Virus record (IMG/VR): IMGVR_UViG_3300029517_000085
DNA length: 22,813 bases
Direction: 5' to 3' (one strand)
Source of the DNA: a virus
Taxonomy: Duplodnaviria; Heunggongvirae; Uroviricota; Caudoviricetes
The position numbers and the translations under genes are program-made. The notes under the pieces are model-generated. The model was not told the origin of the DNA. It did no database searches and saw only the letters and a program-made list of their open reading frames with translations. Positions 3,770 through 22,813 of the stretch are shown piece by piece (the first letter of the stretch is position 1; each line of letters opens with the position of its first letter).

Positions 3770-3978
<209 letters not shown>

Positions 3979-5274: not shown

Positions 5275-5310
5275 AGGTTGCTCCGGGCTATGAAATAGAA
5301 AAATGAATCC

Positions 5311-6675: not shown

Positions 6676-6714
6676 CGCAAAGTCTCCGCAATTACACGCA
6701 AGAAAAAACCGCCA

Positions 6715-6882: not shown

Positions 6883-6965
6883 TTATCATCTCCATAAAAC
6901 AAAACTCGCCGTAGCGAGTTCAGATATAATTTCCACCAAAGGCAGTAGTTGCTTGATGCTAAGAA

Positions 6966-7394: not shown

Positions 7395-7422
7395 TGCCGC
7401 CTCCGTGACATGTCACAGAGAT

Positions 7423-7761
7423 TTATATCATTAATTTTGTTTCGTGCCAGCCTTTGGTCACCCAGCATTGTGAGTCACCATTACACGGGCATGAATTAAC
7501 AGGAACTCTCTCGCCGCACTTACCGCACCGTTTTCTGCTGATCGATTTTATACGCCAGCGCACACGTGCATCATCCTGGCGGCTCAGTAACGCGATGTAC
7601 TCACCAAACTCGCAAGGCGCACGCCTGAAGCGACGCGTGGCACAGTTACGCTCCAGCATTTCAATTTCCTGAGCATCAAGTACAAGCTCCAGCTTACGCA
7701 TACCGGATGATGCTTGCTTGGCTCTCTGATCGGCTTTGTGCTCTGTTGCTGATTTAGCCAT
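7423..7761 (-). CDS. Hypothetical Cys-rich protein (112 aa) with putative C-terminal zinc-ribbon
   Basis: ATG at 7761 with an AGGA SD. C-terminal RCGKCGERVPVNSCPCNGDSQCW has C-x2-C...C-x-C spacing. Sits 28 nt upstream of the 142-aa gene on the same strand. Confidence 0.55.
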   Translation of the reverse strand: MAKSATEHKADQRAKQASSGMRKLELVLDAQEIEMLERNCATRRFRRAPCEFGEYIALLSRQDDARVRWRIKSISRKRCGKCGERVPVNSCPCNGDSQCWVTKGWHETKLMI

Positions 7762-7955
7762 TCTGCTTTTCCTGCATCAGGAGAAAGACAATCATGGCGG
7801 CGCGGATACTTCCGGTATCTTTTTACGCGATATTCCCCTTCAATGGCACATACAAGAAGAGAGCCATCAACAGGAGTGATTGAGGAATCGACAACCAGCA
7901 ACGCTTAATTATCTATAGTGTCGTATTTGCTTCATAAAATATGGCGAATAACACA

Positions 7956-7990
7956 AAGCCCGCAGCAGCTCATTGTGCGGGCTTTTCTTA
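7956..7990. terminator. Intrinsic terminator-like hairpin (9-bp perfect stem AAGCCCGCA/TGCGGGCTT, U-tracts on both strands)
   Basis: AAGCCCGCAGCAGCTCATTGTGCGGGCTTTTCTT, directly downstream of the 204-aa minus-strand gene. Confidence 0.6.
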
Positions 7991-8054
7991 TACCTACTTC
8001 CTAGAGATAATTCTATGGAGGCATTAAATCAATACTGTCATTGGTAATATCATA

Positions 8055-8669
8055 TTATCTAAAAGTCTTTCCACTTTTAACATCTAGGTATATTCTGTTC
8101 GACAACGTCATTCCTCCGCAATATGTGAAATAGATGTTTTCACCCTTATTGCTTGATGCCATCCACCCTCCGATTTCCTTAAAATCGCTTTCCGTGCAGA
8201 CCCCTTCATTTATTAACTTCCTAGCTGCCGAAGAAAACTCTTTTTTGTATATACGGTAGTCATCAGATCCTTTGATTAAAGTATCATCTCCGCTCGCATT
8301 TTCAGCAGGATCTGATGGCCTTTCACTGCTAAGATCACTAAGTTTAACCCATTCTGAAAACTTGCCATTAACGATTCCATTTTTTCTTGTGCAGGATTTA
8401 TTACCTTCTTTAATATATTCGCTTTCCCCTCCAACACATGAGGCTGAATATGGCTCAGTTATACGAACCCATTCACCTTTTTTTTCTAGAAAATCTACGC
8501 CTTCCCTGAAAAATAGTTTCCCAGCCACTCCACATTTACTTGAAGGGCAGGTATGTCTTTCCGTTCGATCAACAACAACCCATAGTTTTGATTCATTTTT
8601 TGCCATTGCCGATGGTATTTGAGATGAGACAATTAACGTAAGCCCTAAAATTAGTATTGATTTTTTCAT
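8055..8669 (-). CDS. Secreted/periplasmic Cys-rich hypothetical protein (204 aa) with N-terminal signal peptide; moron-like
   Basis: ATG at 8669 with an AAGGA SD. N-terminus MKKSILILGLTLIVSSQIPSAMA-KNE is a typical Sec signal with an AxA cleavage site. Several Cys in the mature part. AT-rich, with its own downstream terminator. Confidence 0.65.
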   Translation of the reverse strand: MKKSILILGLTLIVSSQIPSAMAKNESKLWVVVDRTERHTCPSSKCGVAGKLFFREGVDFLEKKGEWVRITEPYSASCVGGESEYIKEGNKSCTRKNGIVNGKFSEWVKLSDLSSERPSDPAENASGDDTLIKGSDDYRIYKKEFSSAARKLINEGVCTESDFKEIGGWMASSNKGENIYFTYCGGMTLSNRIYLDVKSGKTFR

Positions 8670-8967
8670 TGTAATTTCCTTTTACTTTTTACAAAGCGTT
8701 TAATCATGGCTGATTATCTCTAAGTGTAGTAACAGCCTTGTGCGAAACATGTTACCAAATCGCCATTTCAGTGTATCCGCAGTTAGGCTGCCACTTCAAG
8801 GATTCCTAATTACATGGTACGTAAGCGTAAAATCCCGTTGGTTGGCGGGTAATAACTCTGATCAAATCTCCCTTGTCTTTTGCTCTTACGTATGCAGCTC
8901 TTGTGTATTCAACCCAGGCCTCCAGTTCAGCAATACGCTTACTTCCATCCGAGATAACACCTTCTAC

Positions 8968-9219
8968 TCACGCTGCTCGTTGAGTTTTGATTTTTGCTGT
9001 CTCCAGCTCAACACGCAGTTTCCCCACCGTTAGCGCAATATCCTCGTTCTCCTGGTCGCGGCGTTTGATGTATTGCTGGTTTCTTTCCCGTTCATCCAGC
9101 AGTGTCAGCACAATCGATGGTGTTACCAGCTCATGGAAAAGGTCCGCGTCAAATCCCCAGTTGTCAGGCATTGCCTGCTCTGCCGCTTCACGCAGTGCCT
9201 GAGAGTGAATTACGCTCAC
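8968..9219 (-). CDS. Hypothetical protein (83 aa), acidic with a coiled-coil-like C-terminus
   Basis: ORF whose start overlaps the stop of the upstream TraR-like gene. No family recognised; possibly a remnant of an Ea22-like gene (speculative). Confidence 0.45.
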   Translation of the reverse strand: MSVIHSQALREAAEQAMPDNWGFDADLFHELVTPSIVLTLLDERERNQQYIKRRDQENEDIALTVGKLRVELETAKIKTQRAA

Positions 9220-9437
9220 TTCGAACCTCTCTGTTTACTGATAAGCTCCAGATCTTCCTGGCAACTTGCACAAGTCCGACAACCCTGAACGGCCAGGCGT
9301 CTTAGCTCATCTATGGGATCGCCACACTCACAACAATGAGTGGCAGATACAGCCTGGTGGTTCAGGCGGCGCATTTTTATTGCTGTGTTGCGCTGTAATT
9401 CTTCAATTTCTGATGCTGAATCAATGATGTCTGCCAT
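9216..9437 (-). CDS. DksA/TraR-family C4 zinc-finger protein (73 aa)
   Basis: Two Cys pairs (HCCECGD ... CRTCASC) with spacing typical of TraR/DksA C4 fingers. Common in the lambdoid early-left region. Confidence 0.65.
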   Translation of the reverse strand: MADIIDSASEIEELQRNTAIKMRRLNHQAVSATHCCECGDPIDELRRLAVQGCRTCASCQEDLELISKQRGSK

Positions 9438-9535
9438 CTTCCATTAATCCCTGAATTGTTGGTTAATACGCTTGGGGGTAAATGCGAGCAATAAAAAAGG
9501 AGCCTGTAGCTCCCTGATAATTTTGCTTTTCATGT

Positions 9536-9817
9536 TCATCGTTCCTTAAAGACGCCGTTTAACATGCCGATTGCCAGGCTTAAATGAGTCGGTGTGAATC
9601 CCATCAGCGTTACCGTTTCGCGGTGCTTCTTCAGTACGCTACGGCAAATGTCATCGACGTTTTTATCCGGAAACTGCTGTCTGGCTTTTTTGATTTCAGA
9701 ATTAGCCTGACGGGCAATGCTGCGAAGGGCGTTTTCTTGCTGAGGTGTCATTGAACAAGCCCCATGTCGGCAAGCATAAGCACACAGAATATGAAGCCCG
9801 CTGCCAGAAAAATGCAT
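9536..9817 (-). CDS. Hypothetical early-region protein (93 aa; alternative start at internal Met23, 9751)
   Basis: ORF only. No motif recognised. Confidence 0.4.
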   Translation of the reverse strand: MHFSGSGLHILCAYACRHGACSMTPQQENALRSIARQANSEIKKARQQFPDKNVDDICRSVLKKHRETVTLMGFTPTHLSLAIGMLNGVFKER

Positions 9818-9996
9818 TCAGTGGTTGTCATACCTGGTCTCTCTCATCTGCTTCTGCTTTCGCCACCATCATTTCCAGCTTTTGTGAAAGGGATGCGGCT
9901 AACGTATGAAATTCTTCGTCTGTTTCTACTGGTATTGGCACAAACCTGACTCCAATTTGAGCGAGGCTATGTGCCATCTCGATACACGTTCNNNNN

Positions 9997-10185
9997 NNNN
10001 NNNNNNNNNNNNNNNNNNNNNNNNNNNNNNNNCCGTTTATTATTTATCTCCTCAGCCAGCCGCTGTGCTTTCAGGGGATTTCTGATAACAGAAAGGCCGG
10101 GAAATACCCAGCCTCGCTTTGTAACGGAGTAGACGAAAGTGATCGCACCTACCCGGATATTATCGTGAGGATGCTTCATCGCCAT
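9997..10185 (-). CDS. Lambda orf60a-like small protein; 3' end falls inside the masked N run (9992-10032)
   Basis: N-terminal 51 aa [51 protein letters not shown] match recalled lambda orf60a. The rest is unreadable because of Ns. The end coordinate is inferred from the lambda length. Confidence 0.5.
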
Positions 10186-10856
10186 TGCTCCCCAAATACA
10201 AAACCAATTTCAGCCAGTGCCTCGTCCATTTTTTCGATGAACTCCGGCACCATCTCGTCAAAACTCGCCATGTACTTTTCATCCCGCTCAACCACGACAT
10301 AATGCAGGCCTTCACGCTTCATACGCGGGTCATAGTTGGCAAAGTACCAGGCATCTTTTCGCGTCACCCACATGCTGTACTGCACCTGGGCCATGTAAGC
10401 CGACTTTATGGCCTCGAAACCACCGAGCCGGAACTTCATGAAATCCCGGGAGGTAAACGGGCATTTCAGCTCAAGGCCATTGCCGTCACTGCATAAACCA
10501 TCGGGAGAGCAGGCGGTACGCATACTTTCGTCGCGATAGATGATCGGGGATTCAGTAACATTCACGCCGGAAGTGAATTCAAACAGAGTTCTGGCGTCGT
10601 TCTCGTACTGTTTTCCCCATGCCAGCGCCTTAGCATTAACTTCCGGAGCCACACCGGTGCAAACCTCAGCCAGCAGGGTGTGGAAGTAGGACATTTTCAT
10701 GTCAGGCCACTTTTTTCCGGAGCGGGGTTTTGCTATCACATTGTGAACTTCTGAAGCGGTGATGACGCCGAGCCGTAATTTGTGCCACGCATCATCCCCC
10801 TGTTCGACAGCTCTCACGTCGATTCCGGTACGCTGCAGGATAATGTCCGGTGTCAT
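10176..10856 (-). CDS. exo: Lambda exonuclease (Red alpha), 226 aa
   Basis: Full-length match to recalled lambda Exo ([62 protein letters not shown]...). Confidence 0.95.
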
Positions 10857-11638
10857 GCAGCCACCTTCTGCTCAGTGGCTTTCTGTTTCAGGAATCCAAG
10901 AGCTTTCACTGCTTCGGCCTGTGTCAGTTCTGACGATGCGCGAATGTCGCGGCGAAATATCTGGGAACAGAGCGGCAATAAGTCGTCATCCCATGTTTTA
11001 TCCAGGGCGATCAGCAGAGTGTTAATCTCCTGCATGGTTTCATCGTTTACCGGAGTGATGTCGCGTTCCGGCTGGCGTTCTGCAGTGTATGCGGTATTTT
11101 CGACAATGCGCTCGGCTTCATCCTTGTCATAGATACCAGCAAATCCGAAGGCCAGGCGGGCACACTGAATCATGGCTTTATGCCGTAACATCCGTTTGGG
11201 ATGCGACTGCCACGGCCCCGTGATTTCTCTGCCTTCGCGGGTTTTGAATGGTTCGCGGCGGCATTCATCCATCCACTCGGTAACGCAGATCGGATGATTG
11301 CGGTCTTTGCGGTAAATCCGGCATGTGCAGGATTCATTGTCCTGCTCAAAGTCCATGCCATCAAACTGCTGGTTTTCATTGATGATACGGGACCAGCCAT
11401 CAACGCCCACCACCGGAACGATGCCGTTCTGCTTGTCAGGGAAGGCGTAAATTTCTTTCGTCCACGGATTAAGGCCGTACTGGTTGGCGACGATCAGCAA
11501 TGCGATGAACTGCGCATCGCTGGCATCACCTTTAAATGCCGTCTGGCGAAGAGTGGTGATCAGTTCCTGTGGGTCGACAGAATCCATGCCGACGCGTTCA
11601 GCCAGCTTCCCAGCCAGCGTTGCGAGTGCTGTACTCAT
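10853..11638 (-). CDS. bet: Lambda Bet (Red beta) single-strand annealing protein, 261 aa
   Basis: Full-length match to recalled lambda Bet ([66 protein letters not shown]...). ATGA overlap with exo. Confidence 0.95.
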
Positions 11639-11643
11639 CCGTT

Positions 11644-12060
11644 TTATACCTCTGAATCAATATCAACCTGGTGGTGAGCAATGGTTTCAACCATGTACCG
11701 GATGTGTTCTGCCATGCGCTCCTGAAACTCAACATCGTCATCAAACGCACGGGTAATGGCTTTTTTGCTGGCCCCGTGGCGTTGTAAATGATCGATGCAG
11801 AGTGATTCAAACAGGTGCTGGGGCAGACCTTTTTCCATGTCGTCTGCCAGTTCTGCCTCTTTCTCTTCACGGGCGATCTGCTGGTAGTGACGCGTCCAGC
11901 TCTGAGCCTCAAGACGATCCTGAATGTAATAAGCGTTCATGGCTGAACTCCTGAAATAGCTGTGAAAATATCGCCCGCGAAATGCCGGGCTGATTAGGAA
12001 AACAGGAAAGGAGGTTAGTGAATGCTTTTGCTTGATCTCAGTTTCAGTATTAATATCCAT
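11644..12060 (-). CDS. gam: Lambda Gam (RecBCD inhibitor), 138 aa
   Basis: Match to recalled lambda Gam ([54 protein letters not shown]...). Confidence 0.95.
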
Positions 12061-12158
12061 TTTTTATAAGCGTCGACGGCCTCACGAAACATCTTTTCAT
12101 CGCCAATAAAAGTGGCGATAGTGAATTTAGTCTGGATAGCCATAAGTGTTTGATCCAT
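12015..12158 (-). CDS. kil: Kil (FtsZ-targeting host-killing protein), 47 aa
   Basis: Internal Met43 of the 89-aa ORF gives [47 protein letters not shown], matching recalled lambda Kil. Overlaps the gam 5' end as in lambda. Confidence 0.85.
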
Positions 12159-12291
12159 TTTTTGGGACTCCTGGCTGATTAAGTATGTCGATAAGGCGTT
12201 TCCATCCGTCACGTAATTTACGGGTGATTCGTTCAAGTAAAGATTCGGAAGGGCAGCCAGCAACAGGCCACCCTGCAATGGCATATTGCAT
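12127..12291 (-). CDS. cIII: CIII (FtsH/HflB inhibitor protecting CII), 54 aa
   Basis: Hand translation from the minus-strand ATG at 12289-12291 gives MQYAIAGW... and ends ...YGYPD with stop at 12127-12129. Below the ORF-track size cut-off. Overlaps kil out of frame. Confidence 0.85.
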   Translation of the reverse strand: MQYAIAGWPVAGCPSESLLERITRKLRDGWKRLIDILNQPGVPKNGSNTYGYPD

Positions 12292-12363
12292 GGTGTGCTC
12301 CTTATTTATACATAACGAAAAACGCCTCGAGTGAAGCGTTATTGGTATGCGGTAACGCCGCGC

Positions 12364-12732
12364 TCAGGCGGCTTTGATAGTCATATCATCTGAATCAAAT
12401 ATTCCTGATGTATCGATATCGGTAATTCTTATTCCTTCGCTACCATCCATTGGAGGCCATCCTTCCTGACCATTTCCATCATTCCAGTCGAACTCACACA
12501 CAACACCATATGCATTTAAGTCGCTTGAAATTGCTATAAGCAGAGCATGTTGCGCCAGCATGATTAATACAGCATTTAATACAGAGCCGTGTTTATTGAG
12601 TCGGTATTCAGAGTCTGACCAGAAATTATTAATCTGGTGAAGTTTTTCCTCTGTCATTACGTCATGGTCGATTTCAATTTCCATTGATGCTTTCCAGTCG
12701 TAATCAATGATGTATTTTTTGATGTTTGACAT
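12364..12732 (-). CDS. ea10: Ea10 (Ssb-like early protein), 122 aa
   Basis: Match to recalled lambda Ea10 (MSNIKKYIIDYDWKASMEIEIDHDVMTEEKLHQINNFWSDSEY...). Confidence 0.85.
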   Translation of the reverse strand: MSNIKKYIIDYDWKASMEIEIDHDVMTEEKLHQINNFWSDSEYRLNKHGSVLNAVLIMLAQHALLIAISSDLNAYGVVCEFDWNDGNGQEGWPPMDGSEGIRITDIDTSGIFDSDDMTIKAA

Positions 12733-12914
12733 CTATTCATATCCTCATAGATAAAAAATCGCCCTCACACTGGAGGGCAAAGAAGATTTCCAATAATCAG
12801 AACAAGTCGGCTCCTGTTTAGTTACGAGCGACATTGCTCCGTGTATTCACTCGTTGGAATGAATACACAGTGCAGTGTTTATTCTGTTATTTATGCCAAA
12901 AATAAAGGTCACTA

Positions 12915-13115
12915 TCAGGCAGCTTTGTTGTTCTGTTTACCAAGTTCTCTGGCAATCATTGCCGTCGTTCGTATTGCCCATTTATCGACATATTTCCCAT
13001 CTTCCATTACAGGAAACATTTCTTCAGGCTTAACCATGCATTCCGATTGCAGCTTGCATCCATTGCATCGCTTGAATTGTCCACACCATTGATTTTTATC
13101 AATAGTCGTAGTCAT
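12915..13115 (-). CDS. ral: Ral (restriction alleviation), 66 aa
   Basis: Exact-looking match to recalled lambda Ral (MTTTIDKNQWCGQFKRCNGCKLQSECMVKPEEMFPVMEDGKYVDKWAIRTTAMIARELGKQNNKAA). Confidence 0.93.
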   Translation of the reverse strand: MTTTIDKNQWCGQFKRCNGCKLQSECMVKPEEMFPVMEDGKYVDKWAIRTTAMIARELGKQNNKAA

Positions 13116-13185
13116 ACGGATAGTCCTGGTATTGTTCCATCACATCCTGAGGATGCTCTTCGAACTCTTCAAATTCTTCTTCCAT
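13099..13185 (-). CDS. orf28-like small acidic protein (28 aa)
   Basis: Hand-translated minus-strand ORF MEEEFEEFEEHPQDVMEQYQDYPYDYDY overlapping the ral start, as in lambda. Confidence 0.5.
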   Translation of the reverse strand: MEEEFEEFEEHPQDVMEQYQDYPYDYDY

Positions 13186-13385
13186 ATATCACCTCAAATA
13201 AGTTGTTTGCTGCGAAAGTAAATACGCTTAAGTTACCTGTTATTTATCCCACCAAGTTCCGTATCTATCTATCCAGTTACACCAATCATCGACACTCCAT
13301 TTTGTTGTGTCGCATTTTTGCAACTGGCATGAATATCTACCTTCTTTGTAAAGTCGGCGTTTGACTTTCTTGAGCATGGCTCACC

Positions 13386-13727
13386 TCAATCGTAATAAGC
13401 TGGAATTGATTTTCCGCGTTGCTTCTGGCGGCCTGAGCAAGTCACACCCATTTCACTGCGTGGCTTGCGGTAGTAAATACGGTTCTGTTTACGCTCGACT
13501 TCTTCTGCCTTCTGGCAGCGAAGGCTTCCGAGTGATATTGCTTTTTCAGAAAGGCTTAAACGTTTTCTCGGGGCTTCCTGAACAGGTTCCTCACTGTCTG
13601 TGCCGAAGATCGAATCGATGATGTTGCATATAGCATCACGCTCGATAGCCAGCTTTCTGCGCCGCTCATGACGGCGAGTTTTGGCATTTCCTGCAAATGT
13701 TGATTTCCCGTACACGATTACCGTCAT
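13386..13727 (-). CDS. N: N antiterminator, P22-type arginine-rich motif (113 aa from the ATG at 13727)
   Basis: MTVIVYGKSTFAGNAKTRRHERRRKLAIERD... contains the recalled P22 N ARM GNAKTRRHERRRKLAIER. C-terminal GVTCSGRQKQRGKSIP resembles lambda N. Start chosen at Met29 of the 141-aa ORF (GAGGA SD) because the longer ORF would run into nutL. Confidence 0.88.
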   Translation of the reverse strand: MTVIVYGKSTFAGNAKTRRHERRRKLAIERDAICNIIDSIFGTDSEEPVQEAPRKRLSLSEKAISLGSLRCQKAEEVERKQNRIYYRKPRSEMGVTCSGRQKQRGKSIPAYYD

Positions 13728-13846
13728 GATGTTTTCCTCATGTGAAATGGCTTTGGGGGTGATGTGCCAGATGCTGATCTTCTGGTTGCTGTCGTTGCAG
13801 CTGCAATTCACATCACCGCCAAATCCATCTCGTTTGGTATCTGTTT

Positions 13847-13880
13847 GCGCTTTGTCAGCGCCCCATCGAAGTTAAAGAGC
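13847..13880 (-). promoter_or_regulatory. nutL: nutL: boxB hairpin GCGCUGACAAAGCGC (13847-13861) and boxA-like GCTCTTTAAC (13871-13880) on the transcribed minus strand
   Basis: Minus-strand sequence GGCGCTGACAAAGCGCA matches the recalled P22 boxB-left, consistent with the P22-type ARM in N. It lies ~120 nt upstream of the N start. Confidence 0.75.
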
Positions 13881-14143
13881 CTGCCAATCTGTTCCGTTTG
13901 GCTGCCAGCATCCTGCTGACGGCGATAATAATGAACTAATAGTTCGATATTATCAAGAACTGCAAGTACGAGATTTTGCAACTCTTTAATTTTATTAGAT
14001 AAGTTTTTGATATGTAATGAAATTTATTTTTGCAAAGATTGAAGATTGGTCTGTAGGGGAGAAAGGACTGTATTGCTGGCGTGTTAGTTCGTGGGTTAGC
14101 ACATATGCGGATGTTAAATAGGGGAGGCGAACGTGAGGTAAAG
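13881..14143 (-). promoter_or_regulatory. Probable pL/oL early-left promoter-operator region (exact operators not resolved)
   Basis: Non-coding AT-rich interval between the immunity-operon terminator and nutL. Contains motifs (GAACTGCAAGTACGAG, TTGCAA-containing repeats) resembling those in the cI-cro intergenic region. Positional inference from lambdoid architecture. Confidence 0.4.
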
Positions 14144-14170
14144 AAAACCCGGCGCAGAGGCCGGGTTTTT
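14144..14170 (-). terminator. Intrinsic terminator ending the cI-proximal operon (t_imm analogue); palindromic, potentially bidirectional
   Basis: AAAACCCGGC-GCAGAG-GCCGGGTTTTT: GC-rich 6-bp stem extended by A/U pairs, followed by a U-tract on the minus strand (UUUUCUUUACC) immediately after the stop of the 258-aa gene. Confidence 0.7.
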
Positions 14171-14947
14171 CTAGGCTACCAGAGAGTCAATCCAAGAGTC
14201 TCTGGTATGGAATGGCAACACTCGTGCGGTATCATTAAATAGTAGTGATAGTTGCTGTAGCTCAGGTGTTAACCCATCGCTGTCAACTATTACAAATCTA
14301 TTGTTTATGTCAGGAACGACCTGACTTAAGTCAACAATCTTCCCAACTGTTGAGTGGGCAGTATTCCATCCTTTACTGCTGGCAAGGCTTACCGTAAACC
14401 CGCGTTTTGGTGGTATTAGTCGAGACTCATTCCTTAGCGTTAACGGAACAGTAATGTTATGCCCACTAATACCTTTCACTTTTTCCTTTAAGGCTAGTCG
14501 CTTCCCAAGCCCTGCTGATTTTAAGTAACTGATTACACATTTTTCGAACTTATCGTCTTTGACCTCAGCATACCAATCAGCAGTTTGGGCGGATGCAAGA
14601 ATCCCACCACGAATAACATTTGCAGTTACCTGTCCAACGGACGACTCATCTGCCCACGCAGATATCTCTCCAGAGTCATTTAATGAAATTCCTTGCGAAG
14701 CGAGTGATGACCTGATCAGATCAATTTTCTTTTTAGTCAGGTGGATGCCGCGTGATTCAATATTCATCAATGTATCGCAGTAGTCTGTAACCCTATACTG
14801 ACCACTCATCTCTTGAACGAATACGCTTATCTGCTCACAATCATCGTAGTATGTGAAGGGACTAATAACGCGCAGCAACGTGTCGCTCATTGGGTGGCAT
14901 TCAAACCCGAGCTTAGATATGACTGTTGAACACGTTACATTTCCCAT
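14171..14947 (-). CDS. Hypothetical protein (258 aa; alternative start at Met20, 14890), distal gene of the rex-position cassette
   Basis: ORF on the same strand as cI. Its ATG lies inside the last codons of the upstream gene (…TCATGGGAAATGTAA…), suggesting translational coupling. No TM segments or catalytic motifs recognised. AT-rich. Confidence 0.6.
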   Translation of the reverse strand: MGNVTCSTVISKLGFECHPMSDTLLRVISPFTYYDDCEQISVFVQEMSGQYRVTDYCDTLMNIESRGIHLTKKKIDLIRSSLASQGISLNDSGEISAWADESSVGQVTANVIRGGILASAQTADWYAEVKDDKFEKCVISYLKSAGLGKRLALKEKVKGISGHNITVPLTLRNESRLIPPKRGFTVSLASSKGWNTAHSTVGKIVDLSQVVPDINNRFVIVDSDGLTPELQQLSLLFNDTARVLPFHTRDSWIDSLVA

Positions 14948-15477
14948 GATAGCTGACCTGATTTATCTTGATTCGGTAAAGGTGGGCTGCCTTCATATAT
15001 GATATTAAGCGCCTCGCAAAAATAATTCCAGTAGCCAAAAAAATCATCTGGCTTGATGTTCGTTTCAAGCTTGAGTGCAATTTCTTCCCCAGCTGATTCG
15101 AAGTACATGTGATAGTGAGGACCTCGAGCCACCTCAACAAAATCTGGATGGTGCACTATAGATTTATTACGGTGTGACTTGTTATGCGCAGGGTACGGGT
15201 CAAGCGCGTAAATGCGCCTGTCATGAAGAAACATCACAAATGAAAGCTTCACTATATCCACCCCTTCAACGATAGGAGAACGCCAGTGAAGCATAAATCT
15301 TATGCCTGTGATTGGGTTGCCAATTTCATCAAAAGCTTTGAGATCCAATTTAAACCAGATTGGGGTTCGTCCCTCACTTCCGGTCCACGAAACTCCGCTA
15401 AAAGTTACTTTTTTCAAGCGAGTAATAGCTTGGTCAACCTCTTTCTGGGTAGGCTTAAAGTCGCCTTTTTTAGCCAC
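14935..15477 (-). CDS. Hypothetical protein (180 aa, apparent GTG start), proximal gene of the rex-position cassette
   Basis: ORF starting 98 nt downstream of the cI stop, same strand, with a GGTGA SD-like element 9 nt upstream. His-rich segment HHPDFVEVARGPHYHMYFE. No family recognised. Confidence 0.55.
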   Translation of the reverse strand: MAKKGDFKPTQKEVDQAITRLKKVTFSGVSWTGSEGRTPIWFKLDLKAFDEIGNPITGIRFMLHWRSPIVEGVDIVKLSFVMFLHDRRIYALDPYPAHNKSHRNKSIVHHPDFVEVARGPHYHMYFESAGEEIALKLETNIKPDDFFGYWNYFCEALNIIYEGSPPLPNQDKSGQLSWEM

Positions 15478-15574
15478 TGATTCGTATCACCATGAAAGTT
15501 ATTGTTAATACCTATGCTTCTTGTCACCCAAACGTCTCTTCAGGCCATTGGTTACCAGCTATGTGACGATGAAG

Positions 15575-16282
15575 TCACGAACTTTTAATCCATTCCCTTG
15601 CCTCGATGTCATCTAGGTGGCGAGATTGCTTCAAAATACCAGCCACATACTCCACCTTTGCTACTTGATGATAAGGCAACGTTATTGGCCTGTGGTCTTG
15701 ATTGATGCTTGTAAATTGGTATTCTCCGTCTCTGTCATAGCCAAGAACCTTGATCATGTTGTGCCCTTCAATGGTTCTGACAAACACTTCATCACCTGGG
15801 AATACTTTGGTGTTAGGCTCAATGAGTACATATTCTCCTGATTTAATTCTGGGCCACATGCTGTCTCCTTTTACACGAAGACCAAAGGCATCTGGATCAT
15901 CGCTATAAATCTTGAGCCACCCATCGCGCTCTTCGGTCATCTCGATGGCACCATCAACACCAAGAATTGCCTCACCAACCACGCGCACTAACCCTTTTTT
16001 TAATTTGCCAACAATTGAAAAAGTATCTTCATCATTCGCTCCATTTAACGAAGTGCCGTGCTGAAGCCAAACAACATCAACGTTTAGAAATTTCGCAAGC
16101 GCATTCATTTTTTCCTGGCGTGGTAAAGACTCAGCATTAAACCATTTGCTAACGCCTTTGGACGAAAGAGAAAGGGCACGGGCTATGGCCATTCCCCTAC
16201 CATGTTCATCAAGACCAGCTTCTTTACAGGCTTGCGCTAGCCGCTGGGCGAATTCTTTGCGCACTTTTTCATTCTGAACCAT
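15575..16282 (-). CDS. cI: CI-type prophage repressor (235 aa): N-terminal HTH DNA-binding domain plus C-terminal LexA/S24-like autopeptidase domain
   Basis: HTH-like N-terminus (…GMAIARALSLSSKGVSKWFN…). C-terminal GDSMWPRIKSGEYVLIEP with a downstream Lys, typical of S24 Ser-Lys dyad repressors. Divergent from cro. Not lambda or 434 immunity by recall. Confidence 0.85.
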   Translation of the reverse strand: MVQNEKVRKEFAQRLAQACKEAGLDEHGRGMAIARALSLSSKGVSKWFNAESLPRQEKMNALAKFLNVDVVWLQHGTSLNGANDEDTFSIVGKLKKGLVRVVGEAILGVDGAIEMTEERDGWLKIYSDDPDAFGLRVKGDSMWPRIKSGEYVLIEPNTKVFPGDEVFVRTIEGHNMIKVLGYDRDGEYQFTSINQDHRPITLPYHQVAKVEYVAGILKQSRHLDDIEAREWIKSS

Positions 16283-16360
16283 GAGTACGATACTAAAGCA
16301 CTTGCAAAAACTTTCAGTTCAATCATAAAGCGTACTGAAAGTACGAAAAAGGGTATTCCT
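16283..16360. promoter_or_regulatory. oR/pR/pRM divergent promoter-operator region between cI and cro
   Basis: 78-bp intergenic region containing the inverted repeat CGTACTGAAAGTACG (16331-16345) and the related CTTTCAGT/ACTTGCAA motifs. The cI ATG has no SD, consistent with a leaderless pRM transcript as in lambda. Confidence 0.6.
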
Positions 16361-16588
16361 ATGCAAAATCTTGATGAGCCGATTAAAGGTGTCGGCATCC
16401 CTGAAGTTGCGAAGGCTTGTGGAGTTAGCGAAAGGGCTGTCTATAAGTGGCTCAAAAACGGCTTCCTCCCTAAGACTGAGTTTTTTGGGAAAACTAAATA
16501 CGCATCAAAAATCGAAGAGATTTCTGGTGGCAAATATCAAGCAAGCGAAATGCTTGAAATAAGCAAAAAGAACCTTCTGGCTGCATAA
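16361..16588 (+). CDS. cro: Cro-like HTH regulator (75 aa)
   Basis: Small ORF divergent from cI with the HTH-like segment GIPEVAKACGVSERAVYKWLKNG. Canonical position. Confidence 0.8.
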   Translation: MQNLDEPIKGVGIPEVAKACGVSERAVYKWLKNGFLPKTEFFGKTKYASKIEEISGGKYQASEMLEISKKNLLAA

Positions 16589-16595
16589 GTAACAC

Positions 16596-16630
16596 CGCTC
16601 TTTATCAATCTGCACCGCCGACGACGCGGT
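16596..16630 (+). promoter_or_regulatory. nutR: nutR: boxA CGCTCTTTA (16596-16604) and boxB ACCGCCGACGACGCGGT (16614-16630)
   Basis: boxA matches the consensus. boxB differs by one base from the recalled P22 boxB-right (ACCGCCGACAACGCGGT). Lies between cro and cII as expected. Confidence 0.75.
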
Positions 16631-16641
16631 AACTAATTAAG

Positions 16642-16661
16642 CACTCATCGAAAGATGAGTG
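16642..16661 (+). terminator. Stable hairpin (8-bp stem, GAAA tetraloop), possible tR1-like Rho-dependent terminator element
   Basis: CACTCATC-GAAA-GATGAGTG followed by a weakly U-rich tract, located where tR1 lies in lambda. Function uncertain. Confidence 0.3.
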
Positions 16662-16694
16662 TTAGTGATTATTTACCTATGGGAATAGTAAGAA

Positions 16695-16991
16695 ATGACA
16701 CAAACAAGTTACAGCAAACTATCACAGCGCGACGTTGATCGCGCAGAAACAGATTTACTCATCAACCTGTCAACGCTTACCCAGCGCGGTCTGGCAAAGA
16801 TGATTGGCTGTCATGAATCGAAGATAAGCAGAACAGACTGGAGGTTTATTGCTTCGGTCTTGTGTGCTTTCGGAATGGCATCAGACATCAGTCCGATTAG
16901 TAGGGCTTTTAAGTATGCGCTTGATGAAATCACAAAGAAAAAACGCCCGGCGGCAACCGAGCGTTCTGAACAAATCCAGATGGAATTCTGA
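16695..16991 (+). CDS. cII: CII-like transcriptional activator (98 aa)
   Basis: C-terminus …TKKKRPAATERSEQIQMEF matches the recalled lambda CII C-terminus; the N-terminal part is divergent. Canonical position. Confidence 0.85.
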   Translation: MTQTSYSKLSQRDVDRAETDLLINLSTLTQRGLAKMIGCHESKISRTDWRFIASVLCAFGMASDISPISRAFKYALDEITKKKRPAATERSEQIQMEF

Positions 16992-17023
16992 GGTCATTAC
17001 TGGATCAATCCACAGGAGTCATT

Positions 17024-17923
17024 ATGACAAATACAGCAAAAATACTCAACTTCGGCAGAGGTAACTTTGCCGGACAGGAGCGTAATGTGGCAGATCTCGA
17101 TGATGGTTACGCCAGACTATCAAATATGCTGCTTGAGGCTTATTCGGGCGCAGATCTGACCAAGCGACAGTTTAAAGTGCTGCTTGCCATTCTGCGTAAA
17201 ACCTATGGGTGGAATAAACCAATGGACAGAATCACCGATTCTCAACTTAGCGAGATTACAAAGTTACCTGTCAAACGGTGCAATGAAGCCAAGTTAGAAC
17301 TCGTCAGAATGAATATTATCAAGCAGCAAGGCGGCATGTTTGGACCAAATAAAAACATCTCAGAATGGTGTATCCCTCAAAACGAGGGAAAATCCCCTAA
17401 AACGAGGGATAAAACATCCCTCAAATTGGGGGATTGCTATCCCTCAAAACAGGGGGACACAAAAGACACTATTACAAAAGAAAAAAGAAAAGATTATTCG
17501 TCCGAGAATTCTGGCGAATCCTCTGACCAGCCAGAAAACGATCTTTCTGTGGTTAAACCGGATGCTGCAATTCAGAGCGGCAGTAAGTGGGGAACAGCAG
17601 AAGACCTGACCGCCGCAGAGTGGATGTTTGACATGGTGAAGACCATCGCGCCATCAGCCAGAAAACCGAATTTTGCTGGGTGGGCTAACGATATCCGCCT
17701 GATGCGTGAACGTGACGGACGTAACCACCGCGACATGTGTGTACTGTTCCGCTGGGCATGCCAGGACAACTTCTGGTCCGGTAACGTGCTTAGCCCGGCC
17801 AAACTCCGCGACAAGTGGACCCAGCTCGAAATCAACCGTAACAAGCAACAGGCAGTCGTGACAGCCAGCAAACCAAAACTCGACCTGACAAACACTGACT
17901 GGATTTACGGGGTGGATCTATGA
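17024..17923 (+). CDS. O: Lambda replication initiator O (299 aa)
   Basis: MTNTAKILNFGRGNFAGQERNVADLDDGYARLSNMLLEAYSGADLTKRQFKVLLAILRKTYGWNKP… matches recalled lambda O. Contains the ori iterons. Confidence 0.95.
   Translation: MTNTAKILNFGRGNFAGQERNVADLDDGYARLSNMLLEAYSGADLTKRQFKVLLAILRKTYGWNKPMDRITDSQLSEITKLPVKRCNEAKLELVRMNIIKQQGGMFGPNKNISEWCIPQNEGKSPKTRDKTSLKLGDCYPSKQGDTKDTITKEKRKDYSSENSGESSDQPENDLSVVKPDAAIQSGSKWGTAEDLTAAEWMFDMVKTIAPSARKPNFAGWANDIRLMRERDGRNHRDMCVLFRWACQDNFWSGNVLSPAKLRDKWTQLEINRNKQQAVVTASKPKLDLTNTDWIYGVDL
17372..17500 (+). other. ori: ori-lambda: four ~18-bp O-binding iterons followed by an A/T-rich unwinding region
   Basis: ATCCCTCAAAACGAGGGA, ATCCCCTAAAACGAGGGA, ATCCCTCAAATTGGGGGA and ATCCCTCAAAACAGGGGGA at 17372-17457, then ACAAAAGACACTATTACAAAAGAAAAAAGAAAAGATTATT. 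Confidence 0.9.
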
Positions 17924-18408
17924 AAAACATCGCCGCACAGATGGTTAACTTTGACCGTGAGCAGATGCGTCGGATCGCCAACAACATGCCGGAACAGTAC
18001 GACGAAAAGCCGNNNNNNNNNNTACAGCAGGTAGCGCAGATCATCAACGGTGTGTTCAGCCAGTTACTGGCAACTTTCCCGGCGAGTCTGGCTAACCGTG
18101 ACCAGAACGAACTGAACGAAATCCGCCGCCAGTGGGTTCTGGCTTTCCGGGAAAACGGGATCACCACAATGGAACAGGTTAACGCAGGAATGCGCGTAGC
18201 CCGTCGGCAGAATCGACCATTTCTGCCATCACCCGGGCAGTTTGTTGCATGGTGCCGGGAAGAAGCATCCGTTATCGCCGGACTGCCAAACGTCAGCGAG
18301 CTGGTTGATATGGTTTACGAGTATTGCCGGAAGCGAGGCCTGTATCCGGATGCGGAGTCTTATCCGTGGAAATCAAACGCGCACTACTGGCTGGTTACCA
18401 ACCTGTAA
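17920..18408 (+). CDS. P: Replication protein P, C-terminally truncated (162 aa versus 233 aa recalled for lambda); a 10-nt N run at 18013-18022 masks a few codons
   Basis: MKNIAAQMVNFDREQMRRIANNMPEQYDEKP…SNAHYWLVTNL matches recalled lambda P up to about residue 162, then hits a stop at 18406-18408 where lambda continues (YQNMRANAL…). Confidence 0.8.
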   Translation: MKNIAAQMVNFDREQMRRIANNMPEQYDEKPXXXXQQVAQIINGVFSQLLATFPASLANRDQNELNEIRRQWVLAFRENGITTMEQVNAGMRVARRQNRPFLPSPGQFVAWCREEASVIAGLPNVSELVDMVYEYCRKRGLYPDAESYPWKSNAHYWLVTNL

Positions 18409-18514
18409 AGGGCATGCCAAGCAAGTCGATGCTGCATATGCAAAAGAATGCGCGCTGGAAGGTATGGCGAGAACACAGGTTATCTGGCTGAAAGAGGGGG
18501 TTATTAAGGCGTGA
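18409..18514 (+). pseudogene. 3' remnant of a ybcO-like (DLP12 nin-region) gene fused downstream of truncated P
   Basis: Frame ending at 18514 encodes …[29 protein letters not shown], matching the recalled C-terminus of K-12 YbcO, with no corresponding N-terminal part. Stop overlaps the rusA GTG start (GTGA). Confidence 0.55.
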
Positions 18515-18873
18515 ATACCTACAGCATCACATTACCCTGGCCTCCGAGCAATAATCGCTATTACCGCCATAATCGCGGGCGCACGCACGTCAGCGCAGAG
18601 GGGCAGGCATACCGCGATAACGTCGCCCGAATCATTAAAAACGCAATGCTGGATATCGGCCTGACTATGCCTGTGAAAATCCGCATTGAGTGCCACATGC
18701 CGGATCGCCGTCGCCGTGACCTGGATAATCTGCAAAAAGCCGCTTTTGACGCACTCACTAAAGCAGGTTTCTGGCTGGATGATGCTCAGGTCGTTGATTA
18801 CCGCGTTGTGAAGATGCCTGTTACCAAAGGTGGGAGGCTGGAACTGACCATCACCGAAATGGGGAATGAATGA
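18511..18873 (+). CDS. rusA: RusA Holliday-junction resolvase (120 aa), GTG start
   Basis: [51 protein letters not shown]… matches recalled E. coli DLP12 RusA almost residue for residue. Confidence 0.93.
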
Positions 18874-19010
18874 TGTTTGAGTTTAATATGGCAGAACTTC
18901 TTCGCCACCGCTGGGGGCGTCTGCGCTTATATCGTTTCCCCGGTTCTGTTTTGACCGATTACCGAATACTGAAGAATTACGCCAAAACACTGACAGGAGC
19001 AGGAGTATGA
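18870..19010 (+). CDS. ylcG: YlcG-like small protein (46 aa)
   Basis: Hand-translated [46 protein letters not shown] with stop at 19008-19010. Overlaps the rusA stop (ATGA-type). Matches recalled DLP12 ylcG. Confidence 0.7.
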
Positions 19011-19095
19011 AGTCAGAGATAACAATCAACTAATACTGTTTTGTTGATTTTTGCTTGTAATTGGCGTTCTGGTCTGAGTTTTGTGGAGTAAGTTG

Positions 19096-19473
19096 ATGCG
19101 TGATATTCAGATGGTTCTTGAGCGTTGGGGAGCGTGGGCGGCTAATAATCATGAAGATGTGACCTGGTCGTCCATTGCCGCCGGTTTTAAGGGATTAATT
19201 CCTTCAAAAGTAAAATCTCGCCCACAATGTTGTGACGATGACGCGATGATCATTTGCGGGTGCATGGCCCGTCTGAAAAAGAACAACAGCGATTTGCATG
19301 ATTTATTGGTGGACTATTATGTCGGCGGCATGACTTTTATGGCGCTTGCACGTAAGCATGGGCGATCTGATTGTTGGGTTGGCAGGATGCTTCAGAAAGC
19401 TGAGGGCGTAGTGGAGGGTATGCTGATGGTGTTGGATCTCCGATTGGAGATGGATGCTGATTGTTCGAAATAA
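19096..19473 (+). CDS. Q: Late-gene antiterminator Q (phage 82/DLP12 QuuD-type), ~125 aa from the ATG at 19096
   Basis: [75 protein letters not shown]… matches recalled QuuD. GGAG SD 8 nt upstream of the ATG; the ORF track's TTG start at 19081 is less likely. Confidence 0.88.
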
Positions 19474-19572
19474 TTAAAGGAAAAGTTGCTGTCTGATTGT
19501 CATTAGTCTAACATTTTAAATGTTGGAATCGCAACGTAGTTATTATCATATAACAGCTTGTTTCCTGATTTA
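19474..19572 (+). promoter_or_regulatory. Candidate late promoter pR' with Q-utilisation region (exact -35/-10 not resolved)
   Basis: Positional inference: interval immediately downstream of Q and upstream of a strong intrinsic terminator. Contains TTGGAA…TATCAT-like hexamers with non-ideal spacing. Confidence 0.35.
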
Positions 19573-19600
19573 GCCAGCCTCCCCAAAGGCTGGTTTTTTT
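19573..19600 (+). terminator. Intrinsic terminator (tR'-like on the plus strand; may also terminate convergent blc-like transcription)
   Basis: CCAGCCT-CCCCAA-AGGCTGG followed by TTTTTTT (7 T) on the plus strand. Confidence 0.75.
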
Positions 19601-19628
19601 CTAATAAGTATTATTTCGGGTAGGGATT

Positions 19629-20153
19629 TTATTGTTTAACCCATAATAATTCATTGACATTGAATCCCAACTTTTGAGCGGTTCGCACATAGTCTGCTTT
19701 TACTTTATCTGGAATAGTTGGGGTCCTTGCCAGAATCCATAGGTATTCTCTGTTCGGACCACTGACAAGAGCATACTTATACTCATCATCCAGTTTGATT
19801 ACATTATAGCCACCATAGAAGGGGCCAAAAAACGAAACCTTCAATGCTGCAGTTTTAGTATCTCCAGTAAAGTATGCTTTACCTTCGCTCTCGCTCCATT
19901 TATTTTTCGTTGGATCGTATCCACGGTTAAGTACACGAATCCCTCCGTCGTTCCGTTTTCCATAAGTAGCGCTGACCTGTTCCAGACCACGTTCGAACCG
20001 GTTCTCGAGGCGAGCTATTTCATACCATTTTCCGAGGTAGCGGTTGGCGTCAAAATTTGTAATCGGCTGCACACCTTTAGGTGGTGTCGGGGCCTTACAT
20101 GCTATAAGAGTGAAAGAGAGTGCAATGCCAGTCAACACAGGCCATAACTTCAT
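19629..20153 (-). CDS. Bacterial lipocalin (Blc-like) outer-membrane lipoprotein, 174 aa; prophage cargo
   Basis: Signal peptide with lipobox (LIAC-K). Lipocalin SCR1 motif YLGKWYEIARLENRFE plus …KVSFFGPFYGGYNVI…YLWILARTP resemble recalled E. coli Blc. Opposite strand to the flanking phage late genes. Confidence 0.8.
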   Translation of the reverse strand: MKLWPVLTGIALSFTLIACKAPTPPKGVQPITNFDANRYLGKWYEIARLENRFERGLEQVSATYGKRNDGGIRVLNRGYDPTKNKWSESEGKAYFTGDTKTAALKVSFFGPFYGGYNVIKLDDEYKYALVSGPNREYLWILARTPTIPDKVKADYVRTAQKLGFNVNELLWVKQ

Positions 20154-20345
20154 AATAAATCCTGTACCTTTGATAGTTGAGAGTAAGTATGAAAGATAGA
20201 TGATTACGACCGATCACTTAAAGAACTTTCATACTATATTAGGAATAGTCCATAACAGAAAAATTGTCAGTGATGACGCCAGAAAGGCAATTTATTCCGT
20301 GCACTACACAGTTTATGTGTTAATGAATTAGTCAAGGGGGAGAAT

Positions 20346-21305
20346 ATGATAAAAAAACCTGTGATTGGAATCAGCGGTTGTTTGGCCGGTTCTGCTGTTC
20401 GTTTTGATGGTGGTCACAAAAGAGCTGACTTTTTAATGGACAAATTAGTGGAATGGGTAACATTCAGACCAGTATGTCCGGAAATGGCTATAGGGCTGCC
20501 AGTTCCGCGTCCTGCTCTACGTCTTGTGCGCTCGACGCAAGGAAATATACGGATGTGTTTCAGCCACGACCAGAATGAGGATGTGACAGAGAGAATGACA
20601 GAGTTTAGTCGTTCTTATATGGACAAATTAAAGGATGTATCGGGGTTTGTGGTTTGTGCTAAATCTCCCAGCTGTGGCATGGAGCGCGTGCGTGTCTATG
20701 ATGAAAATGGTAATCGAGGTCGTAAAGATGGAGTGGGACTATTTACGAGCACTTTGATGGAAAAGTTTTCCTGGCTACCGGTTGAAGAGGATGGGCGATT
20801 ACATGATCCAGTGCTTCGTGAGAATTTTATTGAAAGAGTTTTTGCTTTGCATGAGCTCAATCACCTTTACAAGGAGAAATTATCAAGAAGAGAGTTATTA
20901 GCTTTTCATAGTCGTTATAAGCTTCAGTTGTTGGCGCATAGCCAGGCAGGCTATAAAGATATGGGACCATTTGTGGCTGCAATACACGAGTGGGCGGACC
21001 TTGAATCATACTTTGAGGTGTATCGTGATAAGCTGATGGCGATTCTCAGAAAACCTGCATCACGTAAAAATCACACGAATGTGCTGATGCATATACAGGG
21101 GTATTTTAGTAACTACTTAAGTACACGCCAGCGTAAAGAGTTGAGCGAGGTTATACTTAACTATCGTTCTGGCACATTACCTCTTCTTGCGCCGTTGACT
21201 CTGCTGAAGCATTATCTGGGTGAGTATCCTAATGATTACTTGCTTACACAGAATTACTTCGATCCCTATCCGGACGAACTGGCTCTAAGACTGATGGTAA
21301 ATTAA
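20346..21305 (+). CDS. DUF523/DUF1722-like protein (TudS/YbgA-like, possible Fe-S enzyme), 319 aa; prophage cargo
   Basis: N-terminus KPVIGISGCLAGSAVRFDGGHK and conserved Cys (CPE, CAKSPSCG) resemble the recalled DUF523 (thiouracil desulfidase-like) signature. C-terminal half resembles YbgA-like DUF1722. Family call from motif memory only. Confidence 0.5.
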   Translation: MIKKPVIGISGCLAGSAVRFDGGHKRADFLMDKLVEWVTFRPVCPEMAIGLPVPRPALRLVRSTQGNIRMCFSHDQNEDVTERMTEFSRSYMDKLKDVSGFVVCAKSPSCGMERVRVYDENGNRGRKDGVGLFTSTLMEKFSWLPVEEDGRLHDPVLRENFIERVFALHELNHLYKEKLSRRELLAFHSRYKLQLLAHSQAGYKDMGPFVAAIHEWADLESYFEVYRDKLMAILRKPASRKNHTNVLMHIQGYFSNYLSTRQRKELSEVILNYRSGTLPLLAPLTLLKHYLGEYPNDYLLTQNYFDPYPDELALRLMVN

Positions 21306-21647
21306 TTGTATGCGATATCATCCAAAAGGATGAGTTCCTGCATGCAGGATATTTACAATCGTAAAAACTACACTATGATACCCAGAGTGTCAGTTTGTAT
21401 AAAAACTCTGTTTACGCTGAAGAAACAATTGAGATGCAACTTAAAGTTGGTAAACATGCCAGTCAAAATATATAATATTATGATTCCACGCAGCTATATA
21501 TAATATAACGGATTGGTTTAATAATTTGTCTTTGTGAGTTAAATACATAATTTTATACTTGTGATGCAATGAAATTTTCCTTATTGTTGAACTGGCGAAT
21601 ATTGATTTTCCACCTATACTTACCTGGTGTAACCCCAATGATATCAG

Positions 21648-22388
21648 GTGGATAATATGCCATACATATGTTCTATCATTTTGGTGTTGAACTCGTTTGA
21701 TGTCCGAATTGGTAAAGAAGATATTTTGTTTAAAAAAGGAAGTGCTGTTCTCATTGATTACAATTTAAAAGATTTTTTTTCATCAAATATAGATCATGTA
21801 ATGATCGTAGATGTTGAAGAGAAAACAGTTAATGATTTCTTTAAAAGCAACACACTCTCACCTTTTTCTGTAAGAAGGTTTTATCCGGCATACTTGATGG
21901 TGGAATGTGAAGATTTTTCATTGTTAAAGAACTTGATTGCATGCTTGAATTGTGATGGCAGAACTGTGGATTTTGTTAGAAATCAAATATCACTTGCATG
22001 TCTTGCTATCTTATCTTCAGAGAAAATAGTGCAAAGTTTTTTATTTGGATGTCTTAATGGTTTAGGAAGTAAAGTTAAGGCTATTATTCACACGGATATA
22101 TCTGCAGCATGGAGACTTTGTGATATATCTTCAAGACTGTATCTGAGTGAAAGTCTGTTAAAAAGAAAATTAAAGCACGAAGGCTTATCATTTAGTAAGT
22201 TAATTCTTGAAGAGCGAATGGTGATGGCGGAAAGGTTATTAAGCTACAATTTATATTCTGTTGGAAAAGTTGCTGAGATATGCGGTTATGAAAACACGTC
22301 ATATTTTGTAAGTGTTTTCAGAAGGTATTTTGGTGTTCCTCCCCATCAATATTCATCAAGATTTTTTTTAGAAAAAGACATGATGTAA
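21648..22388 (+). CDS. AraC/XylS-family transcriptional regulator (246 aa), AppY/GadX-like; prophage cargo
   Basis: C-terminal dual HTH signature (…LLKRKLKHEGLSFSKLILEERMVMAERLLSYNLYSVGKVAEICGYENTSYFVSVFRRYFGVPPHQY). Very AT-rich gene and upstream region. Confidence 0.8.
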   Translation: MDNMPYICSIILVLNSFDVRIGKEDILFKKGSAVLIDYNLKDFFSSNIDHVMIVDVEEKTVNDFFKSNTLSPFSVRRFYPAYLMVECEDFSLLKNLIACLNCDGRTVDFVRNQISLACLAILSSEKIVQSFLFGCLNGLGSKVKAIIHTDISAAWRLCDISSRLYLSESLLKRKLKHEGLSFSKLILEERMVMAERLLSYNLYSVGKVAEICGYENTSYFVSVFRRYFGVPPHQYSSRFFLEKDMM

Positions 22389-22575
22389 CGTGATGCGTTT
22401 TAATGATTTTGTAATTTTCGTATTTGATAATTGTATGATGCTTTCAGCTACGCCAGAATAATCGCGGCGTTTTTCTTTTTGAATAGATGTTCAAGCCTTA
22501 CGCTAATGTAACTTCTATACCTTTCCTCTTCGTTCCGAACCGTGTACACCATCCGTTATTTGCGGAGGTGAGGCT

Positions 22576-22791
22576 ATGAAATCCATGGATAAGTTAACAA
22601 CGGGCATTGCCTACGGCACCTCCGCAGGCAGTGCTGGCTACTGGTTTTTACAGCTGCTCGATAAAGTCACGCCCTCACAGTGGGCAGCAATAGGTGTGCT
22701 GGGTAGCTTGGTATTTGGCCTGCTGACGTACCTGACAAACCTTTATTTCAAGATTAAAGAAGATAAGCGCAAGGCTGCGAGAGGTGAATAA
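22576..22791 (+). CDS. S: Phage-21-type pinholin S (71 aa) with dual-start motif (antiholin from Met1, holin from Met4)
   Basis: [71 protein letters not shown] closely matches recalled phage 21 S / DLP12 EssD. Two TM segments. Confidence 0.88.
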
Positions 22792-22813
22792 TGCCTCCAT
22801 CATTACGAAAAGC
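22791..22813 (+). CDS. R: Endolysin (SAR-endolysin R21/RrrD-like), 5' fragment only; continues beyond the window
   Basis: ATG overlapping the holin stop (TAATG). First codons MPPSLRK match the recalled N-terminus of DLP12 RrrD / phage 21 R. Confidence 0.6.

Follow-up and report, generated by a model that had tools for sequence, protein, structure and literature searches.

The locus studied here raises the question of how a lambdoid prophage with a full set of integration functions came to carry a replication gene P that stops early, and what this would mean for its replication. The window, by which we mean the whole stretch of 22,813 nucleotides analysed, is a single JGI metagenome scaffold and contains the left two thirds of a lambdoid prophage at att-lambda, beside ybhC. 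The prophage genes are arranged in the order int, xis, exo, bet, gam, kil, cIII, immunity region, O, short P, rusA, ylcG, QuuD-type Q, cargo, and essD, with the immunity region comprising an N-like gene, two ORFs, a 235-aa S24 repressor, cro, and cII. The late region past essD lies outside the window, and prophage genes are seen only up to essD. The framework around the truncated gene is made up of the following features:

Left end of the window, 5′ of the prophage: host genes ybhI, ybhJ, and ybhC, arranged as in E. coli 101EVA.
5321–5335, plus strand: att-lambda core GCTTTTTTATACTAA (attL), adjoining host ybhC; one exact match, with 0 expected by chance.
5409–6675, minus strand: int (5409–6479, 356 aa) and xis (6457–6675, 72 aa), both full-length ORFs, with gene sizes equal in 101EVA.
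17024–17923, plus strand: replication initiator O, intact, 298/299 identical to lambda O.
About 17376–17460, plus strand: ori-lambda iterons inside O, intact, with four iteron-like repeats visible in the sequence.
18511–18873, plus strand: rusA, a Holliday-junction resolvase of 120 aa, intact (PF05866 positions 1–123 of 124, E = 2.6e-23).
18870–19010, plus strand: ylcG, an intact ORF that is also found in 101EVA.
19096–19473, plus strand: late antiterminator Q of the QuuD/PF06530 type, intact (PF06530 positions 1–118 of 118).

The attL core, int, and xis are all in place, in agreement with the initial annotation, which had described them as looking intact. Two N runs interrupt the scaffold, at 9992–10032 (41 N, compared to 36 nt in relatives) and 18013–18022 (10 N, compared to 4 nt), so their lengths differ from those of the corresponding DNA in relatives. 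Together with the metagenome origin, the two runs suggest that the window was scaffolded from three contigs rather than assembled as one continuous sequence.

The truncated gene, P′, overlaps the end of O and contains the second N run:

17920–18408, plus strand: P′, truncated helicase loader, lambda residues 1–160 followed by TAA, without residues 161–233 (ORF, alignment, and Pfam).
18013–18022: 10-N run in P′, probably a scaffold gap, with the reading frame kept; relatives have 4 nt there.

The protein reads MKNIAAQ...SNAHYWLVTNL and then stops at TAA 18406–18408, and both the reading frame and the alignment confirm the original observation that P follows lambda P up to this stop. P′ and the 233-aa P of E. 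coli 101EVA show no difference through residue 160 (lambda numbering), beyond which lambda P and 101EVA P go on YQNMRANALTD... to residue 233; the P′ frame itself counts 162 codons instead of 160 because the 10-N run replaces 4 nt. The part after the N run matches PF06992 (Phage_lambda_P) with E = 2.4e-49, covering positions 1–124 of 162, compared to positions 1–162 for 101EVA P. Lambda P consists of four domains, I (residues 1–29), II (about 30–119), III (about 120–192), and IV (193–233) (PMC12661323), and the solved structures span residues 1–233 (8v9t). Measured against this complete protein of about 233 aa, P′ retains the N-terminal lasso and domain II but only about half of domain III: residues 161–192 of that domain are missing, as is the whole of domain IV. 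The deleted part of the gene includes that for the C-terminal lasso helix 211–227, which forms a three-helix bundle with the DH and LH elements of DnaB, is wedged into the DH–LH interface, and touches DnaB Trp294, Met301, and Leu305 (PMC12661323). In the B6P6 complex, two of the loader chains are seen only via their C-terminal lasso (PMC12661323).

Could P′ be a naturally short, functional helicase loader? The initial annotation had named such a protein in related viable phages as the finding that would overturn its reading, and the clean stop and the intact domains I–II hint at it, but no more than hint. The alignment already contradicts it: the stop codon is made by the junction described below, and up to that point the gene does not differ from the 233-aa allele. 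In each of the 152 phage records that have a lambda-type P, 80% or more of the gene is present, and the phage-record rows listed all show the full 702 nt. With the Pfam match cut at position 124 and the DnaB-binding lasso missing as well, we regard a short functional loader as extremely unlikely.

To locate the lesion, the window was compared with the prophage of E. coli 101EVA (NZ_CP138393.1, 4132918–4157732), which is the closest complete genome and carries its prophage at the same ybhC/att-lambda site. The order in 101EVA is O, P (233 aa), ren, tR2, ninB, dam, ninE, ninX, a ybcO remnant, rusA, ylcG, Q, lipocalin, YbgA, HTH, and essD. Two long matches flank the point at which P′ ends. Window 16999–18407 corresponds to positions 16185–17587 of the 101EVA locus (L004) with 98.4% identity over 1,409 nt, and window 18402–22813 corresponds to L004 19747–24158 with 99.86% identity over 4,412 nt; with such identity on both flanks to one reference prophage, the similarity is not due to chance. 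Between the two matches, 2,165 bp present in 101EVA are missing from the window. The features at the join are:

18402–18407, plus strand: deletion junction CCTGTA (three-way alignment); GTA at 18405–18407 is common to both parents, and CCnGTA is shared at 5 of 6 positions.
18408–18424, plus strand: ninF′/ybcO′ spacer, 17 nt surviving from the parental nin region (alignment with relatives).
18425–18514, plus strand: ybcO (DUF1364) 3′ remnant, codons 68–96 plus stop, 29 codons, an older scar with 99% identity to full-length ybcO.

The initial annotation had proposed an alignment against P and ybcO to define the breakpoint, and this places it at GTA 18405–18407, a microhomology of 3 bp. In the three-way alignment, the left parent reads ...ACCAACCTGTA|TCAGAAC, the right parent ...GATTGCCGGTA|AAGGGCATG, and the window ...ACCAACCTGTA|AAGGGCATG. 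The right parental sequence GCCGGTA|AAGGGC is found in all 7 relatives with the spacer, and comparison with five further relatives gives identical breakpoints, the left match ending at 18407 and the right match starting at 18402. The TAA stop is a product of the join, since the A that follows GTA completes it. By our own calculation with the usual formula, a random join would show at least 3 bp of microhomology in about 5% of cases, which is mild support for a microhomology-mediated join. The endpoints and the removed content establish the lesion as a simple internal deletion of 2,165 bp. Taken together, the data point with high probability to one deletion at a 3-bp microhomology, which truncated P in one prophage and left a recently decayed, probably defective prophage.

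The sequence of events that we propose is short. The immediate ancestor would have been arranged as O – P (233 aa) – ren – tR2 – ninB – dam – ninE – ninX – ninF′/ybcO′ scar – rusA – ylcG – Q. One illegitimate recombination at the 3-bp microhomology GTA would have deleted 2,165 bp that began at P codon 161 and ended 17 nt short of the old ybcO remnant, and the join would have created the TAA with which P′ ends cleanly at residue 160.

The region between P′ and rusA calls for caution, as two adjacent scars of different age, 18 nt apart, mimic one junction. The initial annotation had described a frame for the ybcO 3′ end, of about 28 residues, in front of rusA; such a remnant is indeed present at 18425–18514, with 29 codons. 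Homology begins at 18425, which is codon 68 of full-length ybcO (SCZE5, 96 aa), and the 29-aa piece, which falls short of the roughly 96 aa of a full-length YbcO / DUF1364 (PF07102) protein, has no Pfam match. The remnant lies downstream of an intact ninX in EC974 and 101EVA, where it is labelled by PGAP as a DUF1364 pseudogene (‘missing N-terminus’ in 101EVA), and all relatives that have kept full P and ninX carry it with an identical left boundary. As the remnant and the ninF′ piece are present in relatives with intact P, an older deletion had already taken the DNA from ninF to ybcO codon 67. The new junction is 18 nt to the left of this older boundary. The earlier description of P as truncated at a junction with the ybcO remnant is thus right about the truncation and wrong about the direct joining, with 17 nt (18408–18424) in between, and the remnant is not a product of this junction. 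In relatives, the older scar (L004 19650–19769) consists of ninX, the first ninF bases, 65 nt of unknown origin, and ybcO from codon 68, and it is widespread in E. coli prophages with differing cargo downstream of Q.

A second reading of the junction is a join of two phage genomes, in which a lambda-type replication donor met a DLP12/82-type nin–Q donor. The prophage is a mosaic, which gives this reading some ground: the immunity region (12884–16998) and most of O resemble the prophage of strain 22-245, which is located at another site, the arms resemble 101EVA, and both prophage types are present in some strains (AMSHJX01). With the intact att-lambda prophages of 101EVA and relatives such as fS58a and T43, the window shares the integration site, the int–xis–exo–bet–gam–kil–cIII arm (99.2% identity to 101EVA in the alignment over window 3874–12883), and the P allele, as well as the ybcO′–rusA–ylcG–Q–lipocalin–ybgA–AraC–essD arm (99.86%). 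It differs from 101EVA in the immunity region and in the full 233-aa P, ren, tR2, ninB, dam, ninE, and ninX that 101EVA retains. The boundaries of the mosaic can be placed at 12884 on the left and, from the SNP pattern, inside O at about 17869–17920 on the right; as this is a metagenome scaffold, they could also reflect a chimera of co-occurring strains.

The position of the right crossover counts against a two-phage origin of the junction. From there to the junction the window carries the 101EVA allele, with zero differences over 17870–18407, whereas the 22-245 allele differs from P′ at 18354 and 18375. The right flank is likewise of the 101EVA type: leaving aside the crossover base 18404, its 4.4 kb contain 5 differences, and rusA shows zero differences from 101EVA. 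As P′ and the right flank are both 101EVA-type, the two sides of the junction share a single parental type, a pattern that is consistent with a deletion inside one prophage and argues against a two-phage join. The combination of O–P with ninX–ybcO′–rusA–Q is, moreover, widespread with intact P. At all 10 places that encode the identical O protein (10/10), a 233-aa P is followed by ren, and strain 22-245, which has the same immunity region, carries a full P (702 nt = 233 aa) and then ren. An inter-phage origin of the junction was rejected on the SNP pattern, and we consider it very unlikely. As judged from these comparisons, the lambda-type O–P and the nin–Q module had been joined before the deletion, which brought about no new module fusion. 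The earlier proposal that a deletion or illegitimate recombination had fused modules therefore stands for a deletion at the level of microhomology and falls for a fusion to a foreign DLP12/82-type nin–Q module, an arrangement that pre-exists in P-intact relatives.

We then asked where else the junction occurs. Neither the exact junction 34-mer nor the 21-mer had a match among species-representative genomes, the viral contigs of IMG/VR, or the metagenome contigs of JGI, and megablast against 5,426 complete E. coli genomes and 50,697 phage records found no match running contiguously across the junction. The junction-spanning 54-aa ORF occurs once in a collection of 15 billion proteins, in JGI/IMG, and that copy is the window itself. 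The deletion-derived allele is previously unreported, and the process, prophage decay by deletion, is very well known.

The exact 160-aa P′ (without the two extra N-run codons) is, on the other hand, recorded on 302 contigs. Among the ten places shown for it, 8 are contig-end partials stopping at P nt 480–482 (8/10), and a widespread allele or a breakpoint hotspot, as the 302 contigs might suggest, was rejected on this ground. Just to the right of window 18407 lies a common synonymous SNP, TAT/TAC in codon 161 at P nt 483 (for example in phage Stx2a_F723), and contigs break after nt 482 because this SNP makes a branch in the assembly graph of genomes with two P copies. In complete genomes the site is covered contiguously in 3,402 of the 3,450 records with a match, with no structural break there. 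IS insertion and contamination by lambda-derived vectors were dropped as causes of the contig ends once the nt 483 SNP had explained the pattern. Hundreds of database entries described as ‘160-aa partial replication protein P’ mimic a truncated allele as a result of these breaks.

In two draft E. coli genomes (GCA_001283165.1 and GCA_016693495.1), an unrelated and much larger deletion joins P nt 482 to nleB2, about 30 nt into that gene. This join also makes a TAA and has the same P endpoint as window 18405–18408 (L017 8480–8483, L024 5262–5265); it is found in no complete E. coli genome. The case was found by searching with the exact 160-aa protein, which biases the search towards coincident endpoints. 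The shared endpoint adjoins a quasi-palindrome, CTGGCTGGTTACCAACCTG, and may be a coincidence of the search mode or a preferred endpoint. The hairpin at the P breakpoint is weak (−5.5 kcal/mol, z = −1.9) and was rejected for this reason as the cause of the break. That P nt 480–482 is a preferred deletion endpoint, or that a cleanly ended 160-residue P is tolerated or favoured, seems improbable to us. In principle, P(1–160), which keeps the N-terminal lasso and domain II, could bind O or one DnaB site, and it might be a harmless or even a dominant-negative remnant.

Given its origin, the junction could also be an artefact of assembly or scaffolding, with the full P–ren–nin segment present in the real DNA. 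The window is one metagenome scaffold, its N runs have the appearance of scaffold gaps, and one of them lies just 383 nt left of the junction, many short-read assemblies break exactly at P nt 480–482 owing to the nt 483 SNP, and the junction is found nowhere else. There is, however, no N run at the junction itself, the two sides share only 3 bp, and short-insert pairs could not have spanned a segment of 2.2 kb. The path of a de Bruijn assembler needs k-mers that bridge a join, and reads containing the join must therefore exist. Independent deletions of the same type also occur in real isolates. On balance an artefact is unlikely, and a genuine deletion within one prophage remains our preferred reading.

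The segment lost by this deletion corresponds to L004 17588–19752 and comprises P codons 161–233, ren, ninB, dam, ninE, ninX, and the ninF′ piece. The initial annotation had already noted that the ren/nin region is missing, and the ORF reading finds no ren or nin gene between P′ and rusA in the window. Also lost is the terminator AGGCCTGCTGGTAATCGCAGGCCT-TTTTATTT at L004 18120–18143, between ren and ninB, in which AGGCCTGCTGGTAATCGCAGGCCT is followed by a T run and which we take to be lambda tR2. Between P′ and Q the window retains no comparable terminator, only weak matches.

Without the C-terminal lasso, P′ would not load DnaB at ori-lambda. If the repressor were lost, transcription from pR would still be possible and, with tR2 gone, would be expected to read through into rusA–ylcG–Q. 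The prophage might still excise, and replication of its own DNA would be impossible unless P came in trans. A replication-defective prophage is thus the most likely outcome, because the DnaB-binding C-terminus, as defined by the structure, is lost; to this extent the first assessment of the prophage as probably replication-defective is supported, and its addition of ‘satellite-dependent’ is speculation. A plainer alternative could be P supplied in trans from another lambdoid prophage. Lambda P works in trans, and such rescue is conceivable because a lambda-type P is present in 3,566 of the 5,426 complete E. coli genomes; a P from another lambdoid prophage might restore replication, and complementation in this way could also come from a second copy of P located elsewhere in that genome.

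For the host, the loss of P may be neutral or favourable, as P is toxic by sequestration of DnaB, and what survives derepression of trapped lambda fragments are O or P lesions (insertion of IS2, small deletions), as described by Hayes and co-workers (PMC4926192, PMC3640518). These replication-defective (RK−) survivors, or suppressors of P lethality, share with the window their lesions in O or P. Unlike the window, they are laboratory selections in non-excisable fragments, and a C-terminal truncation at residue 160 is not described there. The deletion is ordinary prophage decay, another example of replication genes lost early in that process, and matters little beyond annotation. There it should be labelled as a P pseudogene with a nin-region deletion, and the prophage accordingly as probably defective; a tool whose score rests on int, xis, and att would mistake it for an intact one.

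Two further systems invite comparison. The classical nin5 deletion of lambda removes 2.8 kb between P and Q, so that pR transcripts reach Q with less need for N; it begins in ren and spares P, and the phage is viable. The window shares with nin5 a deletion of about 2–3 kb between P and Q that removes tR2 and the nin genes. It departs from nin5 in its left endpoint, which lies inside P and destroys it: nin5-type phages keep both P and Q and are viable, whereas here Q is intact and P is truncated. The cryptic prophage DLP12 of E. coli K-12 and its variants share with the window truncated P remnants beside ninE–ybcO–rusA–ylcG–quuD–essD. A DLP12-type variant in SCZE5 keeps P nt 97–622, and K-12-type genomes keep only P nt 391–702, beside ren. 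DLP12 occupies argU and retains a full-length ybcO; its O, its immunity region, and most of its recombination genes are gone. The prophage in the window is instead at the att-lambda site, is otherwise well preserved where seen, and has only the ybcO 3′ remnant.

Damage to P has also arisen independently elsewhere. In TUM9812, P nt 1–99 is fused to a 3′ piece of ninX (L001 6021–6196); in EC974, IS3-family elements are inserted after about nt 157 (L002 1727–4095). The DLP12-type element of SCZE5 mentioned above keeps only its internal part of P (L005 2500–3024), and the two draft genomes with the nleB2 fusion keep P nt 1–482 (L017 8001–8483).

Downstream of Q, a three-gene cargo at 19629–22388 precedes the holin gene essD, at the site occupied by stx or a porin gene in other lambdoid prophages. 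Its genes code for a Blc-type lipocalin (minus strand), a 319-aa protein of the YbgA family (DUF523 + DUF1722), and a regulator of the AraC type. These three genes also occur in 101EVA and EC974, where the regulator is frameshifted, and other relatives have a porin gene at that place. Within the immunity region, at 14171–15477 on the minus strand, ORFs of 258 aa (DUF1828) and 180 aa lie between N and the repressor, the position of rexA/rexB in lambda. The pair belongs to phrog_1960 and phrog_2017 in PHROGs (unknown function), shows weak matches to both components of the PADLOC candidate defence system PDC-M24 (B: E = 6e-7; A: E = 1.5e-3), and may be a prophage-encoded exclusion pair.
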